Source: Opitutales bacterium (GTDB taxonomy: Bacteria > Verrucomicrobiota > Verrucomicrobiia > Opitutales > JABSRG01). From it: a stretch of DNA of 64,000 bases. The notes below the pieces were generated by a model, which saw only the letters and a list, made by a program, of their open reading frames with translations, did not search any database and was not told the DNA's origin. Position 1 is the stretch's first letter, and each line of letters opens with the position of its first letter. The DNA lies in the NCBI GenBank assembly GCA_049599475.1, contig JBMYOQ010000002.1:95795-159794 (forward strand), written 5' to 3'. This document shows, piece by piece, positions 864-33,307 of the stretch. The translations under genes and the position numbers were made by a program.

Positions 864-3800
864 ATGCACCTTGAACGCCCCCCCATCGTTCGTCCCTCAA
901 GCTGTCGTTCGGCATCTCTTGACTTAATCTCTCTCCACTCACTGTTCGCCTGGGTGCTCGCATTTTGCGTGGTCACGCAGGGCTTGAATGCGCAGAACGA
1001 AGTGCTTGGGCATCCGATGGTGCATAGTCTGTTCCCGGATGCGTTAGTTACGAAGCGCACCGTGCAAGGGGGAAATTGGTCGAATCCAGCAGTCTGGGAC
1101 GCCAATACATTGCCGACGGATGGCGATCGCATTGTCATCGAAGAAGGGCATGCCGTCGTAGTCGATTACGAGGTGCCTGAGGAGTTGATGACTCTGCACG
1201 TGAAGGGTGACCTATCGTTTAACAAGGATGTCCATACGCAACTGACAGTGGACACCATGCTGGTCGACTCAATGGGCAGCTTGACCATGGGGAAAGAGGG
1301 CGCTCCCATCAGCAGATCTGTCACCGCAAAGATCGTCATCAAAGACTATAATAATGAGGGGATCATTACGCAGTTAAATGAAGATGGCTCAGCGCCTATC
1401 GATTATGATCCTTATCAGGTCGGTCAGGGGCTGATTGCAAAAGGTCGTGTAGATATGGAGGGCGCGACGCGGGTCCATGGCGGGACCTTGAGCCAAGCTC
1501 CTTCGGCTTTGGATGATCGAATCTACCTCGACTTCAAAGCGAAAGACTGGGAGGTCGGCGACAAGATTGTGATTGCGGGCACGACACGAGACGGGCTGGG
1601 GGACGAAGTGCGTGAAGTCGCGAAGCTAAAGAATAGTAAGCGGACAATCGTTTTAGATAGGCCTTTGGAACTCGATCACCACCTGCCAACGCATTCTAAG
1701 GAAGGGCTAATACTGAAAGTCCATGTGATCAACCTTACGCGTAATGTATGGATTGAGACGGATGCATCAGGCCGAGATCCTTTTCCGGCAGAACCGGTAG
1801 ACGGTGTGATTCAATACAACCGCCGCGGTCATCTGATGTTTATGCACAACTCGGATGTCAGGCTGAAGCTTGCTGGGTTTTATGGCTTGGGTCGGTCGAA
1901 TAAGACAACAAGGGCCAAGGATACCTTTATAGACGAGGCCACTGGAGAAATTACTTTATTAGGGACTAACCCTCGTGGGCGATATGCAGTCCACTTTCAC
2001 ATGGCGGGATTCGATCGGACAATTGAGGTCACCGAATGTGCCGTGGATGGAAGCCCGGGTTGGGGGTTTGTAAACCACAGTAGCCGTGTCGACTTCTATC
2101 GCAACGTTGCCTACAATGCGCGGGGTGCCAGTTTTGTGACTGAAGCCGGGGATGAGCTTGGTTCATTTATTGAAAACATTTCGATTCGCAACGATGCCGA
2201 CGAGGATCAGTCAGGCAACGATCTGCGCTTCCAGAAGCGAAAGTTCAGCAGTGATCGAGCAGACGAAAATGAATTTGGGTTTGGCGGGCACGGGTTCTGG
2301 TATCAGGGCATAAATATCATAGCTAAGAGAAATGTAGCATCGGGCGCTGGGCGCGAAGCTATGTCGATATATCCTCTCCCGTTGCTTGGTCGCGTGTCCG
2401 ACACCATCCCGGTCGAAGAGGTGCGCGAGGAGAGTGCTCATTTACACGCTTCCGATGATGTGAGTATAACAGCTATGCCGGTCCTTAGTTTTGAGGACGA
2501 AATTGTGTATGGTTCGAATATCGCTTTGATGGTAGGGGAGCATCGGCCGGATTTTTACTCGCGCGTTAAAAACTTTGTAGGGTGGTCTGTGCAGATGGGG
2601 CTGAGTACCAACTACTCGGATTTCGTGAGCTACGAAGATATCACACTGATTGGAGATTTGGATGACCCGATGGGCTTGGGCGCGTTTGCACACCATGGAA
2701 CGGGAAATGTGGATTTTATCAATCCGCACATGGAAGGCTTTGCCCTGGGGCTGCAGATGCCGCGAGGCGGAAACAGTGAGTTGGGCTCTGAATTGAGTAA
2801 CCCTGAGGCGGCTCTAAAGCTGAGTTTTATAACGAATGGTTATTTTAATAATCTGATAAATTTGCATTTTCCATTGGTGCGAGCGCATACGCCGGTGAAA
2901 GTGGAAATTACAAACCCGACATTCGGGACGCTCGCTCCCGATGCCGTGTCGCGCGCTATTACGGCCTTGGGAGAAATCGATACGAATAACGACTTAAATA
3001 TCGACTCGAGTAACACGGATTCCAATGGATTTAAGAAGCTTAAAGAACTGGTGGATGGCGGAAGTATTACAAAGCAATATAATTACTTGCTCCATGATAC
3101 TTCTAAACCGGAAAATTCGGGAGGCACCACAGTCCATAAAAAGGATATTTTGAAGCCAGTTATATTTACTGTAGATTATGGCGAAGGTGGTAAGTATCAC
3201 CTGATGATGGAGGATATGCAGAATCCTCAGCATGTCCCGTATCAAGCTGATCTATACATTCCTGACGATTATGTCGAAGGGGATGAAATAGGAAAATGGG
3301 GCATTCCCATCGCTTATCTGGATAAGACGAATCGAGAAATTGCGACCTTGTTCCAGTCTGCAACGGATCCCGATAATCCATACCATAATCTATTTGGTAA
3401 GATGGATCATTATCCGATTGGGGCGCACGGAATCGGTGGCATGATGTTTCCTCCCGATTTTGAGCAAATAGATCGCTTTGAACCTTGGGATGATGGGTTC
3501 AATGTCGTTGCGGTGCGCATCGATGACTTGGAGGATTATAAGCTAGATCTTGTCGACCCCAACCTCCCCGTTTTATTATTTGATTTCGAATACGAAGGAA
3601 ATCGGCTAAAATACCGCCAAGACAAGCCTGCTGCTTGGAATGCCTTTCCGATGGAATACAAGTATGCGGATTTTAATGCATACTCGGGGACTGGAAAAGC
3701 CATGTTCCTCGATGGGAAAGGTGATGCTATTGACTACACGCTTCCCTATCGGCATGCGCATAAAACATTCAGTTGGATAGCCGATCTACGACCGCTTGAG

Positions 3801-5720
3801 ACCACGTCTGGAGTGATCTATGAGTGGTCTGCGGGGGATGCATTCTATCAAATCTCAATGGATGGGGGCGAGCTGCTAGCCAAGGTTCAGACTTCTTCAT
3901 CTGCGCCTGTTAAAGAAATAAGAGGGGGCTCCTTGACTGCGGGTCACTGGCACCAGATTGCCTTCAATTTGGAATATTCTTTGGGCCGCGTTTTCCTCTA
4001 CTTAGATGGTGTTCTAATCGGTTCTAGTGATGTAGATACCATTACTGTAATGGATCGTGGTATTGCCCGAATTGGGCGCGGTATCATCAATGATGATGTT
4101 TCAAACGCGTATCGAGGATTTGTCGACAATCTGCGTGTTCTTGAACGTTCTTTCACTGTTCTTGCACTTGAAGAATATTACAATGAAACCCGCATCCAAA
4201 CACCAGAGGAGTTCGATCCATCTCTTGCCGGTTTAGATGTCACGGATATCGATGTCGATGGCGATGACGTGCGCGATTTAGATGATGTGTTTCCTGCAAA
4301 TGAGGATGAAACGCTTGATAGCGACGGTGATGGCTGGGGGGATGCGTCAGACCCAGAGCCTTTCTTGGCATTCCTCGATTCCGATGGCGATCGTGTTCCT
4401 GACGCTTCAGACCCCTTTCCAAGCGATCCTACAGAGTGGAGTGATATCGATGGTGATTGGACGGGTGATTTTGATGACTCCGATGCCGATGGTGACGGTG
4501 TGCAGGATGTTGATGATGCCCTGCCATTCGACGCTACGGAACAGGTAGACACCGATGGTGATGGCGTCGGCGATAATTCTGATGCCTTCGTTCACGATCC
4601 GATGGAATGGCGCGATACCGACAAAGATGGTTATGGGGATAATATTGACGCGCTTGACCACAACCCTGACGAATGGAAAGACTCGGATAATGATGGCTGG
4701 GGCGATGGACAAGATAATCACATTTATTCCCCCGCGTTCGCATTAGAAGAGAATATTTTGCCCAACCCAGGCGCCGAGGATGGAGCTACCGATTGGAAAT
4801 TCTCTAACACCGGATCAAGCGCAACCATAAATCTAGATTTCAAGCGCTCGGGAAATGCCTCATTTATCCTAAATAATGTGGGGGATGGGACCGCGAGAAT
4901 GGAATCTACCGGATTGGAAGTCTCTAACCCGGCGGGACTTAAACGTGTTACCGCGAGTGGTTGGGTGCGATTGAATAAGATTGTCAAAAACAAAGAGGAT
5001 AAAGTCCGCATCGGTATCGATTTCATTGGTGGACGGGTCGAAGAGCGCATCATTCTTGTCGAAAATCGAGAATGGACAAACTTCTCGTTCGATTACTTTA
5101 GCGACGATTGGACCGGCATTGACCGATTTTTCATCTCAAATGATCTGGACAATCTTGTTGTTCATATCGACGACTTGAAGGTGAGCGTAAACAATGTTGA
5201 ATCAGACATAGATTCCGATGGTATCGATGACTATGCCGACAATGACGACGACGGAGATGGCTATTTGGACGGTGAAGATTGGTTCCCGAACAGTGCCTCG
5301 GAATGGGCGGACACGGACAATGACGGCACCGGAAATAATGAAGATACTGATGATGATGGTGATGACCTGCTGGATACCGAAGAAATCGCTGCAGGGCTCG
5401 ATCCGCTCGATGCGTTGGATGCCGATTTGGATTATGACCAAGATGGGCAGACAAATCGTCTAGAAGTTCGCGCAGGCACAGATATCTTCGACTCCATGTC
5501 ACGTTTCATTCTGTCGACAGTGAATGTCTTAGAAAATGGTGATGTCAGGCTCGAATGGGCGGGCGGAGATACGCAAAGCTTCTATATCGAATACTCCAAT
5601 GATCTGATGAACTGGTACGTGTTACCGGATTCGGTAGGTGTAACCGTGAGCGAAGGGTATACCGACATCAGTGTGGGAGGCGCAGCGGCTCGCTACTACC
5701 GTGTGGTGTTGAACGATTGA
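864..5720 (+). CDS. Large secreted G8-domain / parallel beta-helix protein with LamG-like domain, TSP3-like DxDxDG repeats, CBM-like domain and C-terminal tag module
   Basis: ORF 813-5720 (TTG); ATG 864 preferred. Signal peptide, G8 start 'GGNWSNPAVW..LPTDGDRIVI', 'GRYAVHFH', beta-helix-type repeats, LamG 'WHQIAF..LYLDG..FVDNLRV', DxDGDG repeats, ends RYYRVVLND. Confidence 0.85.
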   Translation: MHLERPPIVRPSSCRSASLDLISLHSLFAWVLAFCVVTQGLNAQNEVLGHPMVHSLFPDALVTKRTVQGGNWSNPAVWDANTLPTDGDRIVIEEGHAVVVDYEVPEELMTLHVKGDLSFNKDVHTQLTVDTMLVDSMGSLTMGKEGAPISRSVTAKIVIKDYNNEGIITQLNEDGSAPIDYDPYQVGQGLIAKGRVDMEGATRVHGGTLSQAPSALDDRIYLDFKAKDWEVGDKIVIAGTTRDGLGDEVREVAKLKNSKRTIVLDRPLELDHHLPTHSKEGLILKVHVINLTRNVWIETDASGRDPFPAEPVDGVIQYNRRGHLMFMHNSDVRLKLAGFYGLGRSNKTTRAKDTFIDEATGEITLLGTNPRGRYAVHFHMAGFDRTIEVTECAVDGSPGWGFVNHSSRVDFYRNVAYNARGASFVTEAGDELGSFIENISIRNDADEDQSGNDLRFQKRKFSSDRADENEFGFGGHGFWYQGINIIAKRNVASGAGREAMSIYPLPLLGRVSDTIPVEEVREESAHLHASDDVSITAMPVLSFEDEIVYGSNIALMVGEHRPDFYSRVKNFVGWSVQMGLSTNYSDFVSYEDITLIGDLDDPMGLGAFAHHGTGNVDFINPHMEGFALGLQMPRGGNSELGSELSNPEAALKLSFITNGYFNNLINLHFPLVRAHTPVKVEITNPTFGTLAPDAVSRAITALGEIDTNNDLNIDSSNTDSNGFKKLKELVDGGSITKQYNYLLHDTSKPENSGGTTVHKKDILKPVIFTVDYGEGGKYHLMMEDMQNPQHVPYQADLYIPDDYVEGDEIGKWGIPIAYLDKTNREIATLFQSATDPDNPYHNLFGKMDHYPIGAHGIGGMMFPPDFEQIDRFEPWDDGFNVVAVRIDDLEDYKLDLVDPNLPVLLFDFEYEGNRLKYRQDKPAAWNAFPMEYKYADFNAYSGTGKAMFLDGKGDAIDYTLPYRHAHKTFSWIADLRPLETTSGVIYEWSAGDAFYQISMDGGELLAKVQTSSSAPVKEIRGGSLTAGHWHQIAFNLEYSLGRVFLYLDGVLIGSSDVDTITVMDRGIARIGRGIINDDVSNAYRGFVDNLRVLERSFTVLALEEYYNETRIQTPEEFDPSLAGLDVTDIDVDGDDVRDLDDVFPANEDETLDSDGDGWGDASDPEPFLAFLDSDGDRVPDASDPFPSDPTEWSDIDGDWTGDFDDSDADGDGVQDVDDALPFDATEQVDTDGDGVGDNSDAFVHDPMEWRDTDKDGYGDNIDALDHNPDEWKDSDNDGWGDGQDNHIYSPAFALEENILPNPGAEDGATDWKFSNTGSSATINLDFKRSGNASFILNNVGDGTARMESTGLEVSNPAGLKRVTASGWVRLNKIVKNKEDKVRIGIDFIGGRVEERIILVENREWTNFSFDYFSDDWTGIDRFFISNDLDNLVVHIDDLKVSVNNVESDIDSDGIDDYADNDDDGDGYLDGEDWFPNSASEWADTDNDGTGNNEDTDDDGDDLLDTEEIAAGLDPLDALDADLDYDQDGQTNRLEVRAGTDIFDSMSRFILSTVNVLENGDVRLEWAGGDTQSFYIEYSNDLMNWYVLPDSVGVTVSEGYTDISVGGAAARYYRVVLND
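4250..4720 (+). repeat. Coding tandem TSP3-like Ca2+-binding repeats (DxDGDGxxDxxDxFPxDxxE)
   Basis: About 7-8 repeats visible in the translation of the 864-5720 ORF; equivalent array at ~19560-20040. Confidence 0.75.
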
Positions 5721-5793
5721 TAATCCTGCCTGTGTAATCGCTTTGCTTTCGAAACAATTATTCAGCTTTAGCTACCGAGTGCGCACATAACAC

Positions 5794-5957: not shown

Positions 5958-6060
5958 TGAAGGATCAAGTATCGCTTAAGTACCGATATTGGAGCCTCTG
6001 AGAATACTCCCGGTGCGCAAGTTCGCAAGGGAGGCCCTTAACCCGTTTCCATGACCTTTC

Positions 6061-7607: not shown

Positions 7608-9662
7608 TTATTCGTCGACTACTATGCGTAGGAATTGATTGGGCTGCGAGTCGAAGTTGATATCTGAGCGTAGTTGAATATTTTCGGTGCCATCTCCATT
7701 GGCTGTGGCAGGCGCTATTTGAGTCGTTTGCGCTGGAGACCAGGTCGCAAGGTTCGAAGAGGTCTCTATGTTGTAGAAAAAAGTATCCTCTGCATCGGTA
7801 CGATAGCTATATTGAATACTCGGAGCGTGTGCGTCGACTCCTGGAATAATCCCGAGGTTCTCATCGGGCGTATTCGGATCCAGGCCGAAATAATATTCGA
7901 GCTCATTACTCAGCTGGTCTTGATCCAGGTCATCTTTGCGCGGTTCATCTTCGATCCCGTAAGTGGAAGACCACGCTTCGTAAGGAGTCAAGGGGCGCGT
8001 CGCCAGAATGGCGACTTCTGCCGCGGAGAGGCTGCGGCCATAGATGCGGTAGTCGTCAATCTTTCCTCGATAGGAATTGGCGCCGCTTAACGAAGAGCCG
8101 ATAGTCCATGTGTTGATGCCGGACATACTGTGAGTGGCTCCGTTTTGCGTCTCCACGAGGGTTCCGTTTTTATACAACTTACTCTCTCCCGTGCTTGTGT
8201 TTGAGGTAAATGCCCAGTGCGTCCATTTATAAACGTCGGATGCGTTAGCGTGGTATAGAGTAGTGTTTCCGCTATCCCCACCCGCGGTGAATATGACTTG
8301 GTCATCGTTTTGTGGCAGAGTGATCTTAGTTACAGTCTGACCTCCGCTAGTTTCAGCTTCAGTGATTACAAAATCAGCGATTGCGCGCGTAATATCGCCA
8401 TAGCTCCAGAAGGTCACTGTAAGCTCTTGATCAACACTGGTCAGTGCAGCGCTGGGCACAGTGAGGCTTCCTGTGATTGTAGGGCCTCCGAAGTCCAAGG
8501 CCCCACCCATATATCCTTTGGACCACGATCCTCCTGTTAGGGTTGCATCCATCGCGTTTCCAGAGGCATCGGTGATGTTGGTTCCGGAATTTTCGTTGAA
8601 TTTATACCATACAAGTAAATCGCTAATAGATGGTTCTACTCGAATGGATACAGTGGATTTATATCCGTCGGTCTGGCCGTTGTTTGCTGTGAAGGTAAAG
8701 CTATCGTAGCCGGTAAACCCACTGGCTGGTTGGTAGGTAAATGAACCGTCCGCGTTTAAGGTGAATTGGGCTGCGTTACTTGGTCCCTTGACGAGAACTG
8801 CGCTCAGGGGTAGGCCGTTTTTGTCGAAGGCTGTGGAGAGCACGCCGGGTGCGGCTACCTGGGTCGATTCAGGATACTGAATGGCTACATATTGCTGGTC
8901 GAAGGTTGCGGGTTTGTTGTCATTTATCAGCTGGATAGCTTTCCGCGCAAAACGTTCTCCTAGCAAGGTGTAGTTGTTGTCGGGGCCTTCGTTGTAGTGC
9001 ACGCGATTTTCTAACTCCCCGTTGTTGATGACGTTATTTAAATCGTCGGTATTTACCCACTCGAAATAGTGGGAGTGCTCAGCCATGCTGGACTGAATTT
9101 TACGCACCTCGTCGACATAAAGATAGGTGTCCAGTTTTACGCCGATGTCGGTAATCCGACCAATCACAATATTGATGTGATCGATTCCCATATCGTTTTT
9201 CAGCTGGCCAACGAGAGTGTGGAATGCGTGGTCGTAGAACACATATTTCTCATTACGTGTATTCGCTTCGCCCTGCATCCATATGAAAGTCACCTCCGGG
9301 TCGTTGAGACTATTGTAGCCTTGAGTAGCGTCTTTCTGCAGCCAACCGCCATAAAGCGAATCTAGGCCCCCTGGCGCATCCATACTTTCGTAGGGCCAGG
9401 TCTCCAGCCAGTTAAAGATCGATTGACCGTTTTTTCCCCGGAGTTTGAAAACCTTATTCTGTCCGGGAAAGGCTTCCTGGATCATCGGTTTGAAGACAGA
9501 GTCATAGGCGCCGCTCTTGTCGAATCGAGCCATGTTGGATTGACCGGAGAGAAGGAAGAGGTGTTCGGCTTGTAAGTTACTACAGATGGGTGTGCTTATG
9601 AGTAAGCACGGCCAAAATGTACGCATACATCGAGCCATTCGGTAAAGTGCTGATTGGTGCAT
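7608..9662 (-). CDS. SGNH/SASA-type carbohydrate acetylesterase fused to Ig-like and LamG domains with C-terminal tag module
   Basis: 'LLSGQSNM', 'WMQGEAN', 'RVHY'; Big_9/VCBS-like 'LNADGSFTYQPASGFTGYDSFTF'; LamG 'LVWYKFNE..IDDYRIY'; ends QFLRIVVDE. Confidence 0.8.
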   Translation of the reverse strand: MHQSALYRMARCMRTFWPCLLISTPICSNLQAEHLFLLSGQSNMARFDKSGAYDSVFKPMIQEAFPGQNKVFKLRGKNGQSIFNWLETWPYESMDAPGGLDSLYGGWLQKDATQGYNSLNDPEVTFIWMQGEANTRNEKYVFYDHAFHTLVGQLKNDMGIDHINIVIGRITDIGVKLDTYLYVDEVRKIQSSMAEHSHYFEWVNTDDLNNVINNGELENRVHYNEGPDNNYTLLGERFARKAIQLINDNKPATFDQQYVAIQYPESTQVAAPGVLSTAFDKNGLPLSAVLVKGPSNAAQFTLNADGSFTYQPASGFTGYDSFTFTANNGQTDGYKSTVSIRVEPSISDLLVWYKFNENSGTNITDASGNAMDATLTGGSWSKGYMGGALDFGGPTITGSLTVPSAALTSVDQELTVTFWSYGDITRAIADFVITEAETSGGQTVTKITLPQNDDQVIFTAGGDSGNTTLYHANASDVYKWTHWAFTSNTSTGESKLYKNGTLVETQNGATHSMSGINTWTIGSSLSGANSYRGKIDDYRIYGRSLSAAEVAILATRPLTPYEAWSSTYGIEDEPRKDDLDQDQLSNELEYYFGLDPNTPDENLGIIPGVDAHAPSIQYSYRTDAEDTFFYNIETSSNLATWSPAQTTQIAPATANGDGTENIQLRSDINFDSQPNQFLRIVVDE

Positions 9663-9892: not shown

Positions 9893-11698
9893 ATGAAAAA
9901 TATCCCCTGTACCCGCGTGGATGTAATTCGCGCGTACGTGTTGACTGCTCTGCGTCTGCTGGCATTGGTTTGCCTCGTCTCTCGGGCTCTATACTCTGTC
10001 GACCTATATCCCACTCTTGAGGTGACCCGTCTCGGAGGTGGGGAGGCGCCGATTATCGATAAGCAGAGTTTTATCGATGCGGGGTTGCCGGAAGGAGGTG
10101 ACAATATTAATGGACCGACCTGTATTCGAGTTCCTGACTGGGTTGCTGTCGAAGACCGCGCACACCCGACTGCTCAGTATTATTTGTATTTCGCGAGCCA
10201 TGCTGGGAATGCCTATTTTATACCGATGGCTTGGGCTGCGAAGATAGAGGGCCCATGGACCTTGTTTAATGCGGGCATTAATGATGACCCGCGGGTGGCG
10301 GGGACGGGGGTTCTCGATATGGGTGATTCTAAGCTACAAGCAAATGGTAAGCCCCAATTTTATCCACATGGTGGAGCTGAAGCTCGGTTTAAGAGCAATA
10401 TAGCTTCACCGGATATCGTGATCGATCACGTGAATCAGCAGTTCATTTTATTTTTTCATAGCCCGACTGAAAAAAATAAGGGGTCAAAGCACGGGTTTAC
10501 AACGGGTGGGCAGAAGACAGGTGTGGCTACGTCTGCTACCGGGCTGAATTTTAATATGCCCAATGAGCACGTAGTGCAATTTGGAGATGGAAATGATCCC
10601 GATAATCCGGAACACGTACAGATGGGGCTTGAGGTGACGGGCGGTGTGGGTGGCGGAGAGCCCGGGCACGGCGTAAAGAACGCGCAGCTCGGAAATGCGT
10701 ATTTTAGAGTATTCCAATACAATGGGGAGATGTATGCATTTTCCAATTACGGAAGATTGTGGAAATCACCAAGTGCTTCAGAGCCTTGGTTGACAAGCAA
10801 TCCGCGCAAAGACGCTTGGGATGAGGCGATAGCTGCCGAAAATGCGACGACCAGCGAGGCGGCGGGTGATCCTCGCTTAGGGAATCCCATCTACAAGGAC
10901 CTTACGGAAGCCTATATGGAACGGAATCCGTGGGTCACTGGGGTGAGTTCTGGAAATGTCGATCCTAGGCGCAATTTTGCGGGTAGGACGGGTTTTGAAG
11001 GTTACGACGCAGAGGGTAACCCGATTCCCAAGTTCAATGGAAACCACGGAGCTCCACGCCACTTTGCGACTCTCCTGCAGGAAGATGGGCATACGCTTGA
11101 GGTCTGGTATACCAGTCGGGGTGATGCGCCCGAACGTATTTTCCGAACGACCATGGATCTCAGCCAAGGTGATTGGGAATCATGGCAGACCGTTGTCTCT
11201 GATGACGATTATATCCACGACATGATGTTGACTCCCGAGCGAGATTGGGAAGGCGCTGACTTGCCCGTAACTGGAGGTTCTAACGGGCAATCGGGAGAGG
11301 CCCATGCATTTAGAGATCCACAGTTGTTCAGGGATGATGATGGGCAAGTGTATCTTTTTTACACGGCGCGTGGTGAGACAAATATCGGTGTCGCTCGCGT
11401 TCATCCGAGAGATACGGATGGGGACGGGTCTAGTGACGATGATGAGAGCGTCTCGGGTACCGATTTGAATGATCCGCAGTCGATCTTTAGAATCAGTGAA
11501 GTCATTGATGGTGGTTCTTATGTGACTGTCCGTTGGCCGAGTGTCAGTGGGCGTATGTATGCTCTAGAGACCTCTAATGACGTGAGACAATGGAGCGAGG
11601 TCGCATCTGGAATCGCTGCGCAACCTCCGTATAACGAATATCAACTACCCAAGAGCTCTGTGAATATCTATTACCGTGTGTTGGTGACTTTTCCCTAG
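9893..11698 (+). CDS. Secreted putative beta-propeller glycoside-hydrolase-like protein (family A, copy 1) with C-terminal tag module
   Basis: 'NINGP..RVPDW..YYLYFA..MAWA..IEGP', 'IASPD', 'GNAYFRVF', 'GDAPERI', 'RDPQLF..VYLFY..GE..IGVARV'; ends IYYRVLVTFP. Confidence 0.75.
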   Translation: MKNIPCTRVDVIRAYVLTALRLLALVCLVSRALYSVDLYPTLEVTRLGGGEAPIIDKQSFIDAGLPEGGDNINGPTCIRVPDWVAVEDRAHPTAQYYLYFASHAGNAYFIPMAWAAKIEGPWTLFNAGINDDPRVAGTGVLDMGDSKLQANGKPQFYPHGGAEARFKSNIASPDIVIDHVNQQFILFFHSPTEKNKGSKHGFTTGGQKTGVATSATGLNFNMPNEHVVQFGDGNDPDNPEHVQMGLEVTGGVGGGEPGHGVKNAQLGNAYFRVFQYNGEMYAFSNYGRLWKSPSASEPWLTSNPRKDAWDEAIAAENATTSEAAGDPRLGNPIYKDLTEAYMERNPWVTGVSSGNVDPRRNFAGRTGFEGYDAEGNPIPKFNGNHGAPRHFATLLQEDGHTLEVWYTSRGDAPERIFRTTMDLSQGDWESWQTVVSDDDYIHDMMLTPERDWEGADLPVTGGSNGQSGEAHAFRDPQLFRDDDGQVYLFYTARGETNIGVARVHPRDTDGDGSSDDDESVSGTDLNDPQSIFRISEVIDGGSYVTVRWPSVSGRMYALETSNDVRQWSEVASGIAAQPPYNEYQLPKSSVNIYYRVLVTFP

Positions 11699-11758: not shown

Positions 11759-12097
11759 TTTAAAGTTAGGATTATGGGGATGACTTCTTAGAAGTGCTCC
11801 CCTCAATGATATTCTTACCCTGTACCCGTATTTCCGCCCATTATAGGCGGTACCTCATTCTTTGTTCGCCCAAGAAGACTGGGCGGTATGTGCCTGCACA
11901 GATTAGACTGTTGGATTCGTATCTAGGGGAATTATTTGCATCCCGAAGGGACTCTCACCAAGGTGCAGATCTTGTTTTTTCGGCTCGTTTCCGAAGGGGA
12001 AAAACAAGCACGTCAGCTGCGTTAATCGCATCGGTCGGAGATCTTAAATCGAGGGATCTTTGGGCGCCTTCCAATGCGTGAACAAACTTTTGAGTGT

Positions 12098-21159: not shown

Positions 21160-23205
21160 ATGATAAATATAATACGATCCAGTCTCTTGCTCGCTATGAG
21201 CCTGCGAGTCTTACATGCGAGCCCTGAAGTGTCTCTGTATGGCGGGACGAGCTCTGACGACGCGGAATTTCATGTCTATATTTCATTTTCAGAAGCCGTT
21301 TCTGGTCTGAGTGATGAAGATTTTGGGGTCACGAATGGAACCGTGTCGGGGACTCGATCTACATCTCAGGATAATCATGACACGCACCAAACTGCGCTTG
21401 AAAATCGCTATTATCGCACCACGGTTCGTGCAGAGAAACCGGGAACTGTGGAAGTCTCCCTGCCGGCGGGCGTTGTCCTCGCGAGTAATGGAGGAGCACC
21501 GAACCTCGTTTCTAATACGCTCTCTATAGAGTGTTTGGCGGATTTTGGAGCGGCATGGGTCGTCGACGATTCGGATGACTGGAGTACCTTTACGCATTCA
21601 AGTGTAAATATGGATGTGAGCGGAGGTCAGGCCTCGCCGACAGCGGACTCGTCGAGCCTAAAAAGTGAGATTTATACAGTGGATCGCTTGCGAAAGCCCA
21701 AGTAGGTTCGGTTTCACCAAAGTGCAGCGTGGACGAACTGGAGTGGGGCAGGGAATATTAGCCCGGATGGGGCTACGGATGCCCCTGTTCTCCTATCCGT
21801 AGCGGCAAATGATTATTATTTTCTTTCTCGAGGGCCTACCAAAGCCTACTACGCCTGGCACAGCACTGATATGTCGAACTGGACCGGGCCAGCCCGGATT
21901 ACTAATGATGGGAATGGTAATGGACAATACACGACAACGGCCGAGTACAAGGACGGGGATTTTTACATATTCTATGACAGCCCCAACGATGAAGATCCCG
22001 CCTTGTATATCGATGATGACTTGATGGATGGTGTTGTAGGCACGAACTACGGAATTGTATTTAGTGATCCATCACATGGCTCGGACACGAGCATTATTCG
22101 GACAGATGAGGATGGACGCTTTCATTTGATCTATGAAGAGTGGAGCCCTATCGACCCGAGCACGCATGCCTGGGATTCGCCGCTTGCGGGGCACACCAGT
22201 AGCGTGGACGGGATCAATGGTTTTACGGCTCATAAGCACCATCCCGCAGTCGATCACCGAACGAATCCTACGAATACCTTTGGCACCTATAAGCACCCGA
22301 ATGACAAAAGCATCTTGCAAGAGTATGAGATTCATGAGCCTGCACAGGATGCGTATGGGGATTGGACTACGATCAAAATCGGGTCCCGCTATTATCTGTT
22401 TGGCGATTTTGATGATCATGAGGTCGACAAGATCAAGGTGGGCATTTTTCATTCGGATTCGATATATGAAGAATTTGAGCGCGTAGGGGCTATTGGAAAT
22501 GGGCACCCAGATCCTACAGTCGCCTTTGCGGAAGGACAATTTTACCTGATCACACAGAAGAGTACCGATTATGTGAGCCCCGGACCTTGGATTAAGGGCG
22601 TCGAGGCACGCGCGGGTGTCGATATTGATGGTGATGGAGACATTGATGAGTGGACGAATTGGAAAACGGTGAAAGAGACTTATGACCACAAGCCGGGATA
22701 CGCGCGTGTGGTCGATTGTGACCCGGCTCAGCTCGATTTATCCGGACTTTCTTCCGGCTACGGTTTCCGGTTCGAGTTCCGTATCGACGATACTGTGGTG
22801 AGCGGTCATTCGCCGATTATCGATCGGGTCGAATTCGCATTTGAGCCATCGGGTTTTCAGGCGTGGTCCAATGATCAGGATATTGTTGCCGACCCCCACG
22901 GTGATCATAACCAGAACGGGCTAGAGAATTTAATAGAATTTGCGACAGGCTTAGATGCCTTGCCAGAAATTTCCTTCCCTGAGAGACGCTTGGACTTTCA
23001 ATCCAGTTCTGAAGCGCTGAGCACTGGTTACGGGCTCGAAGTGGCCTTCTCGGACGACCTCAAGCTGTGGAAGCGTGCCTCGGACGAATTGCTCGAAGGC
23101 ATTAGTTTAGATCAAAGCTTCTTTGACGGGAATGGAAATTACATCGAGAGCTTCCTGATCTCTGGAGACTCCAATAAGATCTTTTGGCGTATCGAAGTCG
23201 AGTAG
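21160..23205 (+). pseudogene. Secreted protein (Ig-like N-terminus, family C propeller-like core, C-terminal tag) interrupted by a single in-frame TAG at 21703-21705
   Basis: ORFs 21160-21705 and 21871-23205 share a frame. The intervening sequence reads KPK*VRFHQSAAWTNW..DAPVLLS..YYAWHSTDM and aligns with paralog 52028-53602. Ends KIFWRIEVE. Confidence 0.85.
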
Positions 23206-23531: not shown

Positions 23532-26500
23532 TTACGGAAGAGATACTTCTACTTTGTAGAATGCTTTGTCAGAGCTTGTGTCGCTAAAGATGAGGTCTCC
23601 GGTATTGCCACGGACGGGACCTTGACCATCTACGGCTTGCCAGGGGGTGTTTGGGCCTAGTCTGTCGGCACGAAGTAAGGTGTATTTTCGTTCCAAGGAC
23701 GTGTTCGGAATCAAGATTTCGAATGCGTTCGCCTCCGATTCCATTATTGCCCCAATTTGGAGTTTGGACTGGCCGTTGGACGGGTCGGTATCTGCTAAGT
23801 ATTCTTCATAATCCGATTTACCATCTCGATCGGAGTCGCTGTTGGGGGCCATGTTCAGGGGGTGTCCCGAGTGCGTCCATTCCCAGTCGTTGGGAAGCCC
23901 ATCCGCGTCTGAGTCGATCTTATAGGCATCGTAGGGAGCCAGCAGTTTCTCAAGAAATGCGTCTCCATAACTCATGTTCTCAAATGATTCGCGGTTGCGA
24001 CCGTAGGACATGTATTCGAATCGAGTGAAATGCCCAAGGGAATCGTCCTGCTGAACACTATCTTCTGCGAAGGGTAGATATTTCGTAGACTGATCTCCAG
24101 TGTTTACTCCGGTCTTACTGAGCCAACCCGTGTGCCCCATTTCATGAATGGTAGTATTGATGACATTATTTAAGCTATAGGCAGCGCTACCTGTTGTTAG
24201 GTAATCTATGTATTCGGAGGGATCGGAAATATTAAGGAATGAAGACATGGATGGATCAAAGTGGTATGTTCGGTCATCGCATACAGGTTCAGTATCTTGT
24301 GTTTCTTCGATCTCGTGTGAAAAACAGCTACAGCTCTCTTCGGTATTGAGCGTAGTTGCAGGAGTATCGCAGTCATGATCTTCGTAGAATATAATGCTTG
24401 GATAGAGGCGAGTTACTTTTGTTCTGGACCCTAGGGCTCCCATAGCCTGACCCAAGGAGCCGGGGCCATCTATCCAATATAAAGTGTTTTCTTCCCCAGA
24501 AGACTGTGGCGGATATATTTTAAGAATATCTTCTGCGAATTCGGTTTCATTTTCGTAATAGTATAGCAATGTCGCGAGGTACAGGCCGTCTGCTGTATCT
24601 GTGTCTAAAATTTCCTTGCCGGGAGTTTTGGGGACAGAAGCATACCAAGCTTTTACCTTAGCTGTATTCACATTTTGGTTAACTAGAGAGAAGATTGCAG
24701 GAGGGGCCACATACTCTAATTGAAAATAACCTTTGGTGGCTTTTATGAACTCTTCTGATAATAGCATTTGGGCATCTTCTAGTTCCGAAATATTGGTCAA
24801 CGAAGTATCTCCAATTCTAACCACACGGACTTTGATATTATCAAAAACGTAATCGTTGCGCCAACTCTGGTTTGGGAACTCACGTGCATTGTAAGCGTTG
24901 AAAGTTTCTATTGGGGGTGCGGCTGTAGCGTCGTCCCAATTCGTTTCTAGGGCGAACTCATCAATGTCGCACGATACGCTCCCTTCGAGGGTGGCGTTTA
25001 GTCTAAAGTTAAAGGTCCCGTCTGTTTCATAGTATTTGAGGTGGTAAGGTGCACGGAACAGCGTATAAGCCATACCGTTTTGGTATTCCGATGGATCTAT
25101 GGTTGTAGCTCCGCATTGACCGTTTCTTGATAGATATACGGGGAGTCCTGGTTGTGACCACGGCTCGCTGCGAATAACTTTAATTTTCATCATCGACTCT
25201 TTGTCAGCACCTGGGTTCGTCGGATGAATGTAATCAACGTATATTGTATTTTCGAATTGCTTGTAGTCCTCGATGTTGAGGGCCGTGATGTATACTTCGC
25301 CGGGGAGCAGGGTGGTTTGCGAAATCCCCTGTCCAAAGGATGCCAGATGGCTGCCGTCTAGTGAGTAGAGTCCGCTCAGTGTGTCGCTTAATTCGATGGT
25401 CGGCGCAGGTGTGACTGTTACGGAGTCATAGACATAATCACGGTCTGGCCCCTGCGCCTTAAGCATGAAAAAATATTCGCCAGGAGGGTAATTGAGGAGA
25501 TCTACTTCGATCTCCAGTGGGGTGCCGAGTGGTAGACCCTCTTGCTCGGACACTGTCGATACAGATCCCACAAAATGTTCTTTCGACCAAATTGATGCAG
25601 CAGCGTCTGCGGGGTCCAGATCCCGATAAACCTTCATCGTCGAGAAGCGCTCGTCAGACGGAGGGTTCAGGTGAATGCTTATGATCGATCCAGATTCTAC
25701 GGTGTCTGGTGTTATCTCCAGTGATCCACTTTCTGGAGGGATATAGTAGGTCGGCGCATCGGGAGATGGGTCAGTAGCCGTAATTAATAAGCGTTTAGCG
25801 AGTGTACAATCATTGTCTGATTCCAATGCTGCATTGAGAGTAAATGAAAAGCCACGGTTGAGGCCATATAAAGAGGTGTCTGCGGGAGTCCGGAAAAATG
25901 CGTAGGCTAATTCATCTTGGTAAGCACTTGGCTCCAGAGTTCTCGCACCGCATTGTCCATTGTGAGAAAGTAGGACGAACCACGGTTGACCTTGCACGAT
26001 GCTGATAAATGAGATCTTTGATTCATTGGAGCCGGTTTCTGGGTCATAAGTATAGAAATCGATGTCATTGTTGAATTGTTTGAATTCCAGTGGATTGAGT
26101 GCCAGGATATAGATTGAGTCGGGCACCAGGATTGGCAGTGGCCCAGCTCCATCAAATTGACTTATAAAATCTCCACCGAGGCTATAGAGTCCACTCCTGG
26201 TGTCATTGAAGCTGATATTTGGACCGGTGATTTCGACGTGGGTGTAGACCTTTTCCCGGGTCGGAGCGAACGTCACGAAATAATAGATACCTGGCTCAAA
26301 ATTTAGCACACTAATGCCGACGCTATAGGGCTCGCCCAATCCGGCTTTTTCTGACTCTGTACTTACCTGTTGGTAGCGTTGGGATGGCCAATCTCCATTA
26401 GCAGCATCTACGGGATCCACATCCTTATACACCCAAATAGATGAGATGAACTCTAAGTCCGACGGGGGATATAAATTCACCGTGAGAGTGGTGTCGAAGT

Positions 26501-26636: not shown

Positions 26637-27301
26637 AGGAGTGGGGGGAGGTGTTGAGTGTGGCAAATTCTGTATAGAATTACCTCATTTGAAGAGCACT
26701 TATGAGGTGATTTTGAGAATTTGAACTAGATGTATTCAGGAGAGTGCTGATACCTGATTATTATAGGGTCGGATCTGGTATCCAATGGGAGATTCCTGAA
26801 GCATCATTTGATTTGAAAAACATATAAAAAAATTGGATACTTGCAAGGTTCAAAACCAAAATGGATAGAGTTTGTGGGTATATTATAAATACAAAAAAAT
26901 GTATTTTAAGATATTGTGCGCTATGGCTAAAATTATTGAATTAAATTCACTCAAAACAACATCTCTGTTTGTCGATCGAGTGCGGCAGATAAGGATCTCA
27001 GCAGTAACATCAAGGTAAACGATTACAGGTATAATTAGACAAGGAACGGCTCCCGGGTGGCATTGATTCAGTCTTGGAGACTTCGTCTAACATTTTGATA
27101 TTTGCTCTAATACCGAATCCCGAAAATATTGATTTAATCAAGATTTTCGAGATTCGGTATTAGGTAGGCGGTTCCTTGACTGATCGAACGAAGATCTCGG
27201 TTTCTGTGCTGCTACGAAATTATTCTTCGGCCTATTCCGATCCAAATGAGCTGCGCATCGGAGTTATTTGAGAAGGGATATGGGTGCTGGTTTTGCGTTT
27301 T

Positions 27302-28093: not shown

Positions 28094-28097
28094 GTTT

Positions 28098-28919: not shown

Positions 28920-28923
28920 GTCC

Positions 28924-30438
28924 ATGCTACGAAATCCCGCAATACAGACCCATTTTATGTTGATACCATTTCGACTTTCAGGACTCATAGCCATGCTCTC
29001 GTTTGGGATTGCTGGGGCGTCTTCCTTGTCTCCAGAGCTAAGAGTCACACGGTTAAACAACAATCAACCGATTATTCATCAGGGCCTGTTTAAGGCGTAT
29101 GCACCGGACGGACCTCCGGAATCGCTGCACCCGGAGGATTTGGAAGCCTATCAGGAGTTTTATGGCAAAGAGATTGATCGTAAGGGCAAGCCTTTCCAGG
29201 TCTCAGGCGAGGCGACGAACATCAACGGGCCCTGTATGGTGCGTGTCCCGAGCTGGCTGAAAGATCATGAAAAAGCCGATCCGCGTGCGAATTATTATCT
29301 GTACTTTGCGCACCATGGCTCGCCCTTCATTCGTATGGCGTGGGCACAGCACATTGAAGGGCCTCACACCTTGTATAATATGCATCCGGTCAATCGTGAC
29401 CTGGAGGGAGGGGATACGCAGCCTGGCCGAGGCGTTTTGGATCTCGGTTCCTCATTCAAGCGCGTGATCTATGGGAAGGTCAAACCTACCGTAAAGCTCA
29501 CTACAAAGGTTCATCTTAAAAATAATATAGCATCTCCAGATGTGATCATTGATGACGAGAATGAGCGGTTCATCATGTTCTTCCACAGTCATGCCGAAAA
29601 GCCGACCTTTGATTCCCGAAAGGCCAATACCAGTAAGCAGAAGACCTTTGTCGCCACATCGCGGACTGGCCTCAATTTCAACATGCCAGGGGATCCTAAG
29701 AACCTTCCACAAGGGGGTGTTCATGGGGGGGAGCCGGGGCATGGCATCAAGCCTGCCTATCTCGGTAATGCATATTTTCGCACGTTTATCTACGGGGGAC
29801 ATATTTATGCATTTACGAATTATGGACCTCTCTGGAAGGGGCCTGATGCAACCTTTACGGGAAAGTCAAATCGCCCCTTCAATTACGACGGGATCTGGGA
29901 CACCTCACTTCGCGGAAACGATGAGCGCGGGGATATCTGGATGCAGATGGAAAATCCTACTGAAAATCCGATCAAACGAGACATCGCGAGGATGAAGCCT
30001 CCGGGGATAAGCCCTAAGGATAATTCGCCAGATTTCACCCGGGCTAGTACGCAGACCGCTCGTCACTTTGCCACACACCTCCACGCAGATGGACGGACAT
30101 TAGAAGTCTGGTACACTGCGCGCAATGATAGACCGGAGCGGATCTTTCGCACGGTAATGGACCTCGCGCAGGTTGACTCGAAGGGGAATCCGGTCGATTG
30201 GCATAATTGGTCTACGCAAGTCGATAACCCCGTAGATGTGCACCAAATGATGCTGACGCCTGAATACCCGTGGGAAGGATCGGAGCTGCCTATCAAGGGC
30301 GGGGGCAATGGGCAAACCGATTTTGCGCACGCCATGCGTGACCCGGACCTGTTCCAAGACATCGATGGAACGCTCTACCTGCTCTATGTCGGCGGGGGAG
30401 AAAGTGCCATTGGTATCGCGCGTGTAGACACACTTTAA
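28924..30438 (+). CDS. Family A beta-propeller protein (copy 4), no C-terminal tag
   Basis: Closest to 13907 (KNNIASPDV, KTFVATSRTGLNFNMP, AMRDPDLF); ends IGIARVDTL*. Confidence 0.8.
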   Translation: MLRNPAIQTHFMLIPFRLSGLIAMLSFGIAGASSLSPELRVTRLNNNQPIIHQGLFKAYAPDGPPESLHPEDLEAYQEFYGKEIDRKGKPFQVSGEATNINGPCMVRVPSWLKDHEKADPRANYYLYFAHHGSPFIRMAWAQHIEGPHTLYNMHPVNRDLEGGDTQPGRGVLDLGSSFKRVIYGKVKPTVKLTTKVHLKNNIASPDVIIDDENERFIMFFHSHAEKPTFDSRKANTSKQKTFVATSRTGLNFNMPGDPKNLPQGGVHGGEPGHGIKPAYLGNAYFRTFIYGGHIYAFTNYGPLWKGPDATFTGKSNRPFNYDGIWDTSLRGNDERGDIWMQMENPTENPIKRDIARMKPPGISPKDNSPDFTRASTQTARHFATHLHADGRTLEVWYTARNDRPERIFRTVMDLAQVDSKGNPVDWHNWSTQVDNPVDVHQMMLTPEYPWEGSELPIKGGGNGQTDFAHAMRDPDLFQDIDGTLYLLYVGGGESAIGIARVDTL

Positions 30439-30465
30439 ATGTATCCAAATCTATAGACTTTCATT

Positions 30466-31602
30466 ATGCACTCATTACTTAAAGCCCTTATTTTAGGGAA
30501 CTTGTTCTTGCTCCTGAATTTCCAGGCAAATGCTCATAGTGATATTTCGGTGCATGTGATGAATACGGGAAGTCTGATCTATCGGGACATGGATTCCATG
30601 ACTCCGGGGGAAACGCTCGAAAATGTTTCTCTGAACGACCTTCAAGGGCAGTGCATCGTGAAGATCAATGGCGTGTATCATATGTATTTTGCCAAGCACA
30701 AGGGACTCAAAGTATATTTGGCAACCGCACCAGATATCGCGAGTAATGCGTGGACCTATGTCGGCGTGGTGCTGGATAGCGATGTCGGAAAAGGCCTATC
30801 CACCTTTGATCATATAGCCTTTCCAGATGTCACCATCGCGGAGAATGATCCGGGGCGCTACATCATGCTCTTTCATGGGATGCATCGGATGGGGAAGGGG
30901 GCCACCCGTAAAAAGGGGAAAAAGGAGCACATGAATTACATGGCTGTCAGTGGAGACCCGACCAATTTTAATGATGGCGTCCTGCTGCAAGACCGCTTGG
31001 GGACCCCCGCTCCTGTCTGCGTAACCGGCCCCTATGGGCGTGTATTTAAAATGTGGGACGACTACTATGCCGTTTCAAAACAAGGGGAGCTCTATGATAT
31101 TCCTGAGCACTTTGAGAGCGTCTTCAAAACAGGTACGTATGAGGGGCTCGATATTTCGGGGCTAAAAACGAAAATCGATGATGTGAATTTTGATCGGATT
31201 CCATCTCCAATCAGTAAGGACCTTCTCCTCGAGAATTGGGGGCTCAAGCCGTCTGACTATAATTGGATCAATCACCCCGATTTGAACCAAATTGCCCAAA
31301 CCAATAAGGCCGAATTCTATTTTTGGATTAAAAAGCCAAAAGACAGTAAATACAGCGAATTATACCGACAGGTTATTACGCTTGGAGAGCGGGGAGACTG
31401 GTTTATCGACCCGAATGAAAAGCTCTCCACAGCGCTCACTCGCGAAGCTGTCACCGAAGCCGTGGGCAAGCCTGTTACAACGCTGGGGGATCCTTATTAT
31501 TTCTACGAAGATGGAGTCGAGTATCTGTTTTTCGGGTACAGTCATGGAAGGGCAAACTCCCCAGGCGAAGGTAATATCGGCGTAGGCCGTATCAGTCGTT
31601 AG
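30466..31602 (+). CDS. Secreted putative beta-propeller protein (family B, untagged)
   Basis: Signal peptide; 'YHMYFAKH', 'HIAFPDV', 'YIMLFHG', 'GDPYYF..EYLFFGY', 'PGEGNIG'. Tandem paralog of 31712. Confidence 0.75.
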   Translation: MHSLLKALILGNLFLLLNFQANAHSDISVHVMNTGSLIYRDMDSMTPGETLENVSLNDLQGQCIVKINGVYHMYFAKHKGLKVYLATAPDIASNAWTYVGVVLDSDVGKGLSTFDHIAFPDVTIAENDPGRYIMLFHGMHRMGKGATRKKGKKEHMNYMAVSGDPTNFNDGVLLQDRLGTPAPVCVTGPYGRVFKMWDDYYAVSKQGELYDIPEHFESVFKTGTYEGLDISGLKTKIDDVNFDRIPSPISKDLLLENWGLKPSDYNWINHPDLNQIAQTNKAEFYFWIKKPKDSKYSELYRQVITLGERGDWFIDPNEKLSTALTREAVTEAVGKPVTTLGDPYYFYEDGVEYLFFGYSHGRANSPGEGNIGVGRISR

Positions 31603-31711
31603 CCTCTTCCGCAAAGTCTCCTACACAGTACAGCTCCCCCTGAGTCCCTTACCCCGCAAGCCGTTCCTTGAGAGGGCTTTATTATCTTTTATCCCTTGAT
31701 TACACCTATCT

Positions 31712-33307
31712 ATGAAAAAGCTGTTGCCTTTCGCGATTGTAGCGACCGCGATACTCCCAAGTTATGCCCATGAAAACCTCGATATAACCGTCGATATTTT
31801 CAGTGATAGCAGTCTCATTTTCCGATACATGGACTCGATCAATCCGGGAGAGGATCTGTCTGGGTATAACCTCAACGATTTGCAGGGGCAGAGCGTCATC
31901 AAAATCGACGGGGTCTATCACATGTATTTTGCGAAACACAATGGCACCCAGGTTCATCTGGCCACGACTGAGGACCTAGAAGTCGGGCCTTGGATTTATG
32001 TAGGTGTTGTTTTGGATAAAGCGGTGGGCGCCGGGCTTGCCAATTTCGACCATATCGCAGCCCCAGATGTGAGAATCGCGGAAGAGGCCCCGGGGCGCTA
32101 CATCATGCTGTTTCATGGTCAACATTACATGGGCGCGGATGCGACGGACCGCAGTGGACAGAAGGAACACATGAACTTCATGGCGATTAGTGACGATCCC
32201 ACCGACTTCAATGATGGCGTCTTATTGCAACCTAGAAAGGATGGCTTGCTGGCACCCGTGTGTATTTCCGATGGATACGCCCGCGCCTTTAAAATGAACG
32301 ACGACTATTTTGCCATCGCGAGTAGAGGAGAGATGTTTGATATCCCGGAGGTCTTCGAAACTGTCTCCCGAACGGGCACCTATGATGCCGTAGACGTATC
32401 GACCCTGAGCTCGCGCAAAGAGACCACCAACTTTACCCGGGTCCCGTTTCCAATCTCTTCTGCGTATTTCGAGGACCTTTGGGGGCTCACCACGAGCGGC
32501 GGCGATAAATCACTGCCGAACTATTTTAGTCACCTCAACCATGGTTTCGTACATCAGATCGGTACCTCGAATTTCGTGGATTATTTCTTTTGGTTGAAAA
32601 AGGCGAATGATCCTACTTACCGAGAAATGTTCCGCCTGGTACTCGAGCTCGATGAAAACAACAATTGGGTGCACGATCCTCTCAACACACCTCAGGCGGT
32701 GATTGGCTTGAGTGATGTGACTCATGGAGATGGCGCCAATGCGCGCTCTTTTGGAGATCCCTTCTATTTCCGGGATAATGGGCATGAGTATTTGCTCTTC
32801 GGATACGAATACGAACAGGCTAACAGTCCCGGTGAGGGAAATATTGGCCTCGCCAAAATTACACGGTATTACGGGGACGGGTCGGTGTGGCTCGATAGCG
32901 ATTGGGACGGCCAAGACAACGATGCTGATCTTGATGACGATAATGATGGCATCGACGACCTCACCGAGGAACAGTTTGGCCTGAATCCACTAAATGTTGA
33001 TGATGCCGGGGCCGATTTCGACGGTGATTCACAGCCGAATAAAACGGAGATCTTGGCCGGTACAGACTTGAACGACGCGAGTTCTCAATTTCGCATATCG
33101 AGTCTCGTAAAGGACCCGGTTGACGGCGATATTCAGATCGATTGGTCTGCGGGATCCAACCGGGCTTTTTCAATAGAATATTCGGAAAACCTCGTGGATT
33201 GGTTTCCCTTGCCTGGAGCCAGTGCGATCACTTCTGGCAGTGGATTTACCGATACAACAGTTGTGGAGGGGCAACCGCGTTTTTATCGCGTAATTCTCAA
33301 TGAGTAA
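31712..33307 (+). CDS. Secreted putative beta-propeller protein (family B) with C-terminal tag module
   Basis: Collinear with 30466 up to PGEGNIG, then DxDxDG segment and tag; ends PRFYRVILNE. Confidence 0.8.
   Translation: MKKLLPFAIVATAILPSYAHENLDITVDIFSDSSLIFRYMDSINPGEDLSGYNLNDLQGQSVIKIDGVYHMYFAKHNGTQVHLATTEDLEVGPWIYVGVVLDKAVGAGLANFDHIAAPDVRIAEEAPGRYIMLFHGQHYMGADATDRSGQKEHMNFMAISDDPTDFNDGVLLQPRKDGLLAPVCISDGYARAFKMNDDYFAIASRGEMFDIPEVFETVSRTGTYDAVDVSTLSSRKETTNFTRVPFPISSAYFEDLWGLTTSGGDKSLPNYFSHLNHGFVHQIGTSNFVDYFFWLKKANDPTYREMFRLVLELDENNNWVHDPLNTPQAVIGLSDVTHGDGANARSFGDPFYFRDNGHEYLLFGYEYEQANSPGEGNIGLAKITRYYGDGSVWLDSDWDGQDNDADLDDDNDGIDDLTEEQFGLNPLNVDDAGADFDGDSQPNKTEILAGTDLNDASSQFRISSLVKDPVDGDIQIDWSAGSNRAFSIEYSENLVDWFPLPGASAITSGSGFTDTTVVEGQPRFYRVILNE

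Follow-up and report, generated by a model that had tools for sequence, protein, structure and literature searches.

A C-terminal module shared by eight genes

The window analysed here is a stretch of 64,000 nucleotides from an Opitutales bacterium (assembly GCA_049599475.1, contig JBMYOQ010000002.1, positions 95,795 to 159,794), whose genome, G000 in our search set, comprises 4.68 Mb on 146 contigs, is 96.6% complete and has 3,691 called proteins. Eight genes in the first 33 kb of the window end in the same module, an EF-hand-like loop-helix followed by a fibronectin type III (FN3) sandwich without strand G (Table 1). A sequence-only reading of the window had proposed that the module is a lineage-specific tag for outer-membrane export or scaffold docking. 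Docking is the half of this proposal that gained support, from a co-distributed and repeatedly fused partner family, TIGR02597, and from a predicted complex in which the partner fills the place of the missing strand.

All eight open reading frames (ORFs) end with the terminal strands quoted in the sequence-only reading, and the [YF]xAW lead-in described for the 7608 and 21160 genes is present in both. Two of the gene assignments were amended. The module credited to the 21160 protein is there but lies beyond an in-frame TAG, in ORF 21871-23205, and the module credited to the 12098 protein lies in ORF 12610-13872 of a frameshifted gene. The cores of the tagged proteins, which had been called unrelated, include two pairs of paralogues (813/15589 and 9893/12610). 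The observation that no sulfatase carries the module holds within the window but not in the rest of the genome, where three long members and one 390-aa fragment of a 103-member sulfatase family are tagged.

The TAG is located at 21703-21705 in the 21160 gene, at a position occupied by Ser in two homologues. The frameshift in the 12074/12098 gene is located near 12.6 kb (window 12600-12630), close to five consecutive G. In a second study, matching contig pieces (depth ~3) were identical letter for letter to the window over both sites, the TAG site sitting just 11 bases from the end of its matching piece; run X1 was left out of this comparison as it may be the source of the window. The TAG and the frameshift may reflect decay or slippage in these two tagged genes. 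Four untagged paralogues in the window (40-53% identity to tagged genes) end where the module would begin, and the module of the 9893 protein starts directly after the GIARV end common to its untagged paralogues. Outside the window, untagged G8 paralogues of 1,882 and 1,959 aa were found.

Table 1. Module copies, sub-parts of one copy and untagged paralogues in the window.
Feature	Position	Strand	Context
Module	5409..5717	+	C-terminus of G8/CEMIP beta-helix/LamG protein 813-5720
Module	7611..7952	-	C-terminus of SASA esterase/Big_9/LamG protein 7608-9662
Module	11393..11695	+	GH43-like propeller protein 9893-11698
Module	13564..13869	+	ORF 12610-13872, second half of frameshifted propeller gene (first half 12074-12736)
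Module	20767..21069	+	G8/beta-helix/LamG protein 15589-21072
Divergent module	22882..23202	+	ORF 21871-23205, downstream of in-frame TAG in 21160 gene
Module	23535..23858	-	HExxH protein 23532-26666
Module	32993..33304	+	Protein 31712-33307; copy used for fold prediction, singly and together with TIGR02597
Sub-part: Dx[DN]xDG loop, Glu at loop position 12, helix, GxDP (TSP3_bac-like)	32993..33082	+	
Sub-part: FN3-type sandwich of six strands, the last being F; conserved S64, L67, W70, F97, R99	33083..33304	+	
Untagged paralogue of 9893 protein	13907..15241	+	47% identity; natural control
Untagged paralogue of 9893 protein	28924..30438	+	40% identity
Untagged paralogue of 31712 protein	30466..31602	+	51% identity
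Untagged paralogue of 21160/21871 protein	52028..53602	-	53% identity

The tail of the 31712 protein, predicted from a 61-row alignment with a predicted local distance difference test (pLDDT) score of 92.9, consists of a loop and a helix followed by six strands. Its best fold matches are FN3 domains, with middling Z values: 5g56 (Z 8.6, root-mean-square deviation (rmsd) 2.2, 71 residues aligned, strands A-F), 3mpc (Z 8.1, rmsd 2.4, 74 aligned, residues 3-78 of 96), 7jgu (Z 7.2, rmsd 2.5, 72 aligned, residues 2-75 of 90) and the Pel3 domain (4u49, Z 7.1, rmsd 2.5, 67 aligned). In targets that consist of one FN3 domain, the last 15-18 residues lie outside the alignment, which suggests that the tag chain ends on strand F, without strand G. 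The module is predicted with high confidence to be an FN3 sandwich of strands A, B, C, C', E and F, with an open slot beside strands F and A. It is a fold-level relative of FN3, whose topology is A-B-E / C'-C-F-G, rather than a family member. No Pfam fn3 match was obtained among 61 copies, and the beta part matched no Pfam or NCBIfam model (eight window tails in both libraries, 61 copies in Pfam) beyond weak matches to DUF3999 in 7/61 and F5/8 in 3/61 copies. Foldseek gave no match for the predicted tail at E-values up to 0.001, T9SS CTDs (type IX secretion system C-terminal domains), dockerins and pilins are absent among the 50 structural matches listed, and the searches returned no solved relative by sequence for either the tag or its adaptor.

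The near-invariant residues of the tag are L67, W70, F97 and R99, position 97 being F or Y in 61/61 copies. Residues 8-19 form a calcium-type Dx[DN]xDG loop (D8 in 52/61, D10 in 53/61, D12 in 51/61 and E19 in 55/61 copies), and PF18884 (TSP3_bac) matches 11/61 copies at E-values up to 0.1. From this motif, the loop probably binds calcium. Covariation over 140 copies revealed only the calcium-loop pair (D8/D10 with E19) and a weak E62-R99 pair; an E19-R99 salt bridge that we had considered was dropped, as E19 is the loop-12 calcium position. The calcium loop is missing from many copies in other genomes, which makes the sandwich the core of the module; the loop, which is also absent from the predicted interface described below, is accessory and dispensable. 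In one genus (g50, L084-L102) the calcium site looks degenerate, with Lys in place of the loop-12 Glu and without the first Asp residues, while these copies retain the sandwich motif.

Occurrence of the tag and of its candidate partner TIGR02597

The sequence-only reading had suggested searching the genome with a hidden Markov model of the tails for C-terminal position and co-occurrence with signal peptides. A model of the eight window tails and later a model of the beta part alone were used. With the beta-part model, 62 of 3,691 proteins carry the module, and the reversed proteome gave no match. The module ends within 15 aa of the stop in 55 of the 62 copies, compared to 2.3 for uniform placement. 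Signal-peptide-like N-termini, called by a crude rule, were found on 45/59 tagged and 849/1,929 background proteins, and by the same rule tagged proteins make up 19 of the 37 signal-peptide proteins longer than 1,400 aa, about half of the largest. No membrane helix was predicted in 61/62 tagged proteins and no protein of the genome is both tagged and PEP-CTERM, in agreement with the lack of a transmembrane helix or PEP motif noted earlier. Once the module is masked, the carriers fall into 43 sequence families, and the tagged coding sequence amounts to ~225 kb.

In a comparison of 201 Verrucomicrobiota genomes, where at most 26-27 candidates were scored per genome so that genome counts are lower bounds, the tag model matched at least 76, 78 and 96 genomes on successive broadening. 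On these counts, lineage specificity would hold at the level of the phylum. Of the best matches examined in other genomes, 47/48 end within three residues of the stop. The module was found on a LamG-GH18-BACON enzyme labelled Akkermansia muciniphila and on a protein labelled Kiritimatiella glycovorans. In the Atlas it occurs in unnamed clusters whose commonest phylum is Verrucomicrobiota. A search of 1.84 billion representatives returned 80,548 matches, mostly TSP3 repeats, with the beta part in just 23 of the top 150, and gives no estimate of family size.

The candidate partner was found via P0105 and P0006, two proteins with internal tags in which strand F continues into an extra strand and then into a TIGR02597-like domain; P0105 has five internal modules, each followed by its own extra strand. 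NCBIfam did not call the trailing domain of P0105 and P0006, but a model of stand-alone members did (E-value ~1e-37). The genome has a single partner gene (G000 C144:2177-3283), which scores 63.3 bits against the TIGR02597 cut-off of 50. TIGR02597 is an NCBIfam entry without an assigned function, and the partner matched no barrel family.

The partner tracks the tag across the phylum. The curated TIGR02597 model matched 30 of the 201 genomes, of which 29 are tag-positive, the remaining match being an 84-aa fragment; in family f17 it matched the same 5/15 genomes as the tag. With broad models, 79 genomes have both, 17 the tag only, 10 the partner only and 95 neither, a table that is partly circular, as some discordant genomes had contributed copies to the training of the broad tag model, and that treats related genomes as independent though kin are not. 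With a narrower tag model the corresponding counts are 68, 10, 21 and 102. Within families the broad models gave (both/tag only/partner only/neither) 6/1/0/8 in f17 and 8/1/0/8 in f22, and the narrower tag model gave 5/0/1/9 and 7/0/1/9. Because of the training and the relatedness, these narrower within-family contrasts are the fairer figures. Two control families do not track the tag: GspK, found in 142/201 genomes (14/15 in f17, 1/17 in f22), and Amuc_1100, found in 151/201 (9/15 in f17, 17/17 in f22).

Among the loci examined were 70 partner ORFs, 56 stand-alone and 14 forming the C-terminal part of large proteins. Of these 14 fused domains, 12 sit directly behind a module by the broad tag model, which is circular here; six of the 12, and likewise P0105 and P0006, came from searches with a tag model that had not been trained on them. 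Two apparent exceptions to co-occurrence, G034 and G177, are also tag-partner fusions. In a quick tree with unsettled forks, fused members occupy several branches, a weak hint that tag and TIGR02597 were fused repeatedly. In stand-alone members, a signal-peptide-like segment, judged by eye, ends about six residues before a PVG-type motif, so that the register of the mature N-terminus is that of the extra strand in the fusions. The Gly of this motif (G9) is invariant (55/55 stand-alone members), and the consensus of the strand is xxVxT[DN]PVGY. A short adaptor subtype (L220-L228, L252-L260; ~205-240 aa mature) without the first beta domain keeps both the N-terminal strand motif and the PEP-CTERM neighbour described below.

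To obtain a model of the complex, the mature partner and the 31712 tail, which is encoded on a different contig from the adaptor gene, were folded together from separate alignments of their own, alongside three controls. The complex scored 0.84, 0.84 and 0.83 compared to 0.00 for the best control; the score mark was reached by 116/157 solved and 2/215 mismatched pairs, a calibration that is only rough for own alignments. At least 81% of contacts are common to the runs, and the partner has a pLDDT of at least 69. In the model, partner residues 2-12 contact strand F (95-102) and strand A (32-40) of the tag, in the place of strand G, with a predicted antiparallel register of partner residue 5 with tag residue 100, 8 with 97/98 and 10 with 95/96. 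Partner residues 220 and 240-243 contact tag residues S64, L67 and F97. The conserved patch of the adaptor is G218/V220/P241, and the most conserved residues of both families would therefore meet. The calcium loop is not named in the predicted interface.

The missing strand is thus supplied by the terminal strand of another chain, as in donor-strand complementation, though in prediction only, and equivalents of the donated strand are present in chain in the natural fusions. The tag-adaptor link is predicted, and fusion and co-occurrence back it. Taking the model together with this independent genomic support, the N-terminal strand of TIGR02597 very probably fills the slot of the tag.

The putative PEP-CTERM anchor, the proposed docking chain and its alternatives

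Of the 54 cases in which there was room to look, 48 have a PEP-CTERM gene next downstream of the partner. These neighbours constitute a separate family: a leave-one-out model ranks the neighbour in our genome first of 3,691 proteins (E-value 3e-5). Tagged genes often flank the partner-PEP-CTERM pair (L169, L171, L172, L176, L180, L183, L215, L219), and the genome has three exosortases and at least 12 PEP-CTERM matches. In genome G134, one locus (L224) holds five short TIGR02597-type genes within 10 kb, each followed by its own PEP-CTERM gene. No tag was detected in G134, and these adaptors may serve a more divergent one. At two loci of genome G198 (L175, L186), TIGR02597 is followed by the gene of a 305-aa protein that lacks a PEP-CTERM ending and has its homologue at the other locus; this protein is a possible alternative anchor.

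These observations suggest the following chain. Cargo, which by sequence mostly has signal-peptide-like N-termini, lacks membrane helices and ends in the module, would be exported by its own signal peptide and present an incomplete FN3 sandwich. The TIGR02597 adaptor, after removal of its signal peptide, would expose a free N-terminal strand that fills the strand-G slot, its G218/V220/P241 patch meeting S64, L67 and F97. Judging from gene order, the small PEP-CTERM protein of the next gene downstream would hold the adaptor and would itself be processed and anchored by an exosortase. Many different enzymes and adhesins would in this way be clipped non-covalently to the envelope, most likely at its outer face. 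For the crossing of the outer membrane, the complete type II secretion (T2SS) operon in the genome is the default candidate; other sortase-type cargo needs the T2SS to reach the surface (excerpts of bioRxiv 10.1101/2023.06.07.544157). The whole chain from cargo through adaptor to PEP-CTERM anchor, docked by donor-strand complementation, we consider rather probable, and we favour, a shade less firmly, its extension to a phylum-wide system of surface display with a G-less FN3 tag, a strand-donating TIGR02597 adaptor and a dedicated PEP-CTERM anchor.

The other half of the original proposal, an outer-membrane export signal, found no support as an obligatory role: close paralogues are untagged, 7/62 copies are not terminal, and no co-distributed translocon was found. 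Of the co-distributed components that had been proposed as search targets, translocon or scaffold, the candidate found is the TIGR02597 partner. Nothing was recurrent beside the cargo among the listed genes of 14 loci in other genomes, no recurrent machine was found among 232 genes near tags in the host genome, and no secretion-machine family recurred among the clustered neighbours of partner genes. The same strand donation could nevertheless serve export, if TIGR02597 acted only transiently in the periplasm, as an escort that stabilises the unfinished sandwich of the cargo and passes the cargo on to a secretin for release, the tag being the export signal. One adaptor gene for ~62 cargoes would fit a recycled escort, secretins were found in every one of 21 genomes searched in the order, and the chaperones of chaperone-usher pili donate a strand to incomplete subunits. 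This alternative is unlikely, as cargo and adaptor are often permanently fused (14 fusions in the loci examined), frequently with the PEP-CTERM gene still next to them, as retention would have it; there are large paralogues without the tag; and the neighbour that recurs beside the partner is a PEP-CTERM gene.

Less probable again is an autonomous FN3-type domain for binding or spacing (glycan, exopolysaccharide (EPS) or self-association), with TIGR02597 relevant only to the partners fused or adjacent to it. Tandem and internal copies, the 10/78 tag-positive genomes without a detected partner and the frequency of FN3 in carbohydrate-active enzymes (excerpts of PMC7949064) would all suit such a domain. 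However, the tail with the passing complex score has its gene on another contig than the adaptor, the most conserved tag residues fall in the predicted interface, and tag presence tracks the adaptor within f17 and f22. A direct role as recognition domain of the T2SS, like the Fn3 domains in Dickeya PelI and in Pectobacterium Pel3, where the C-C' loop acts as a secretion determinant (excerpts of PMC7949064), is very improbable: Pel3 is a fold match, the conserved SxDLxxW of the tag lies at the C-C' loop like the Pel3 signal (excerpts of PMC7949064) and the T2SS operon is complete, but GspK was not found in six tag-positive g50 genomes and is present in 70/123 tag-negative genomes, and the predicted adaptor interface explains the residues at the C-C' loop.

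Several observations weigh against the docking chain itself. The seven non-terminal copies are internal or N-terminal, P0111 and P0118 hold three tandem copies, and the large untagged paralogues imply that the tag is optional. The complex prediction covers one of eight window tails. The co-occurrence table of the broad models is partly circular and its kin are not independent, as noted, and family f35 has no association (5/2/3/2). With the narrower model the partner was not found in 10/78 tag-positive genomes, which include G015 (100% complete, 30 contigs) and G107 (95%, 7 contigs). Further points come from A. muciniphila, whose locus tags Amuc_0825 and Amuc_2164 we take to be our loci L217 and L103. 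This mapping draws on gene order and on excerpts of PMC12834350 and PMC9415379. In excerpts of a proteome study (PMC4960237), PEP-CTERM proteins were more abundant in intracellular than in outer-membrane fractions, Amuc_0825, the putative anchor, was not detected and Amuc_2164 was absent from the outer-membrane list; these excerpts lend no proteomic support to tagged cargo on the cell surface.

Other features of the window and of the genome were also recorded. Window positions 6061-55035 are rich in sulfatase-like and other carbohydrate-active genes, of which two sulfatases were confirmed by Pfam and the remainder were judged by the look of their sequence; tagged genes are confined to the first 33 kb. 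The cluster continues just upstream of the window with a ninth tagged G8 paralogue (G000 C2:88986-93848) and a sulfatase-family protein with a loop-less tail (G000 C2:86140-88833). At window 55879-59625 (-) lies a Verru_Chthon cassette A-like gene (weak TIGR02600 match) with a small neighbour at 55139-55870 (-); by regular expression, the C-terminal motif of its product is common to 11 proteins of the genome. Elsewhere in the genome, an untagged RHS protein of 3,261 aa has SpvB and TcdB_toxin_midN domains (L135, G000 C59:7647-17429). The genome also has a second, unnamed Trp/Tyr-rich module of ~105 aa, with 15 matches, 12 of them C-terminal (G000 C144:440-1414, C8:68624-70558, C11, C14, C24, C75, C85 and others), which never shares a protein with the FN3 tag. 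One of its carriers is the third gene of the TIGR02597-PEP-CTERM row, and another follows an Amuc_1098-like secretin.

Comparison with known systems

Among the Verrucomicrobiota are major degraders of sulfated polysaccharides in the sea and of mucin in the gut, and the literature that we searched does not settle how they retain large enzymes at the cell. That full-text search, which had subscription journals and bioRxiv supplements outside its scope, returned no account of the module, the partner or their pairing, and the term TIGR02597 was absent from it. Donor-strand docking of enzymes would be an undescribed way of holding them at the surface, including in gut Akkermansia. If the chain is correct, TIGR02597 and one PEP-CTERM subfamily would acquire a concrete job, the ~225 kb of tagged coding sequence could be read as envelope-docked cargo, and tag and adaptor would constitute a natural plug-and-socket pair. 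The proposal is directly testable, since it specifies what the cargo, the adaptor and the anchor are and makes predictions for individual interface residues of tag and adaptor; A. muciniphila, whose labelled proteins include one tagged GH18 enzyme and one adaptor, would be a minimal test case.

The module was rejected as a T9SS CTD, a dockerin or PEP-CTERM cargo on the grounds of family matches and architecture. Like T9SS CTDs, it is a C-terminal beta-sandwich tag on diverse secreted proteins, but the T9SS CTD is a seven-stranded Ig-like sandwich (excerpts of PMC11285876), in contrast to the six strands of FN3 type here. No TIGR04183 or TIGR04131 match (eight window tails, NCBIfam) and no Por_Secre_tail match (61 copies, Pfam) was obtained, and the genome gave no SprA/Sov or type A CTD match in searches where no positive control gave a signal. 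The earlier impression that the module does not look like a T9SS CTD is thus upheld by family, by strand count and by its best matches being FN3. Type B T9SS CTDs are anchored by binding a dedicated partner, PorP/SprF (excerpts of PMC9143113).

The PEP-CTERM/exosortase system (excerpts of bioRxiv 10.1101/2023.06.07.544157) would supply the anchor here, whereas the cargo itself lacks the PEP motif and membrane helix and would reach the anchor via two non-covalent links. PelI and Pel3 are likewise secreted enzymes with an FN3 domain, whose C-C' loop is functional, but the Fn3 of Pel3 is N-terminal, seven-stranded and confined to few homologues (excerpts of PMC7949064), and its secretion signal is a parallel at the level of the fold only. 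Chaperone-usher pili share an incomplete sandwich without strand G that is completed by a strand of another chain. They differ in using the pilin Ig fold rather than FN3 and in polymerising, whereas here unrelated cargo would be joined to one adaptor; no usher was found.

The closest functional likeness is to the dockerin-cohesin-scaffoldin chain of the cellulosome, in which many unrelated enzymes bear a portable tag, mostly at the C-terminus and with a calcium-type Dx[DN]xDG loop-helix, docking is many-to-one and non-covalent, and the envelope anchor is separate. The parts are different. The tag has one dispensable EF-like loop rather than a duplicated pair (dockerin PF00404 matched 0/61 copies, which have one loop-helix and not two tandem units), its predicted binding part is a beta sandwich, the putative receptor is TIGR02597 rather than a cohesin, and the host is Gram-negative. 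Together, these comparisons suggest that the chain, if true, would be a Gram-negative functional counterpart of the cellulosomal dockerin-cohesin-anchor chain, built from unrelated parts.

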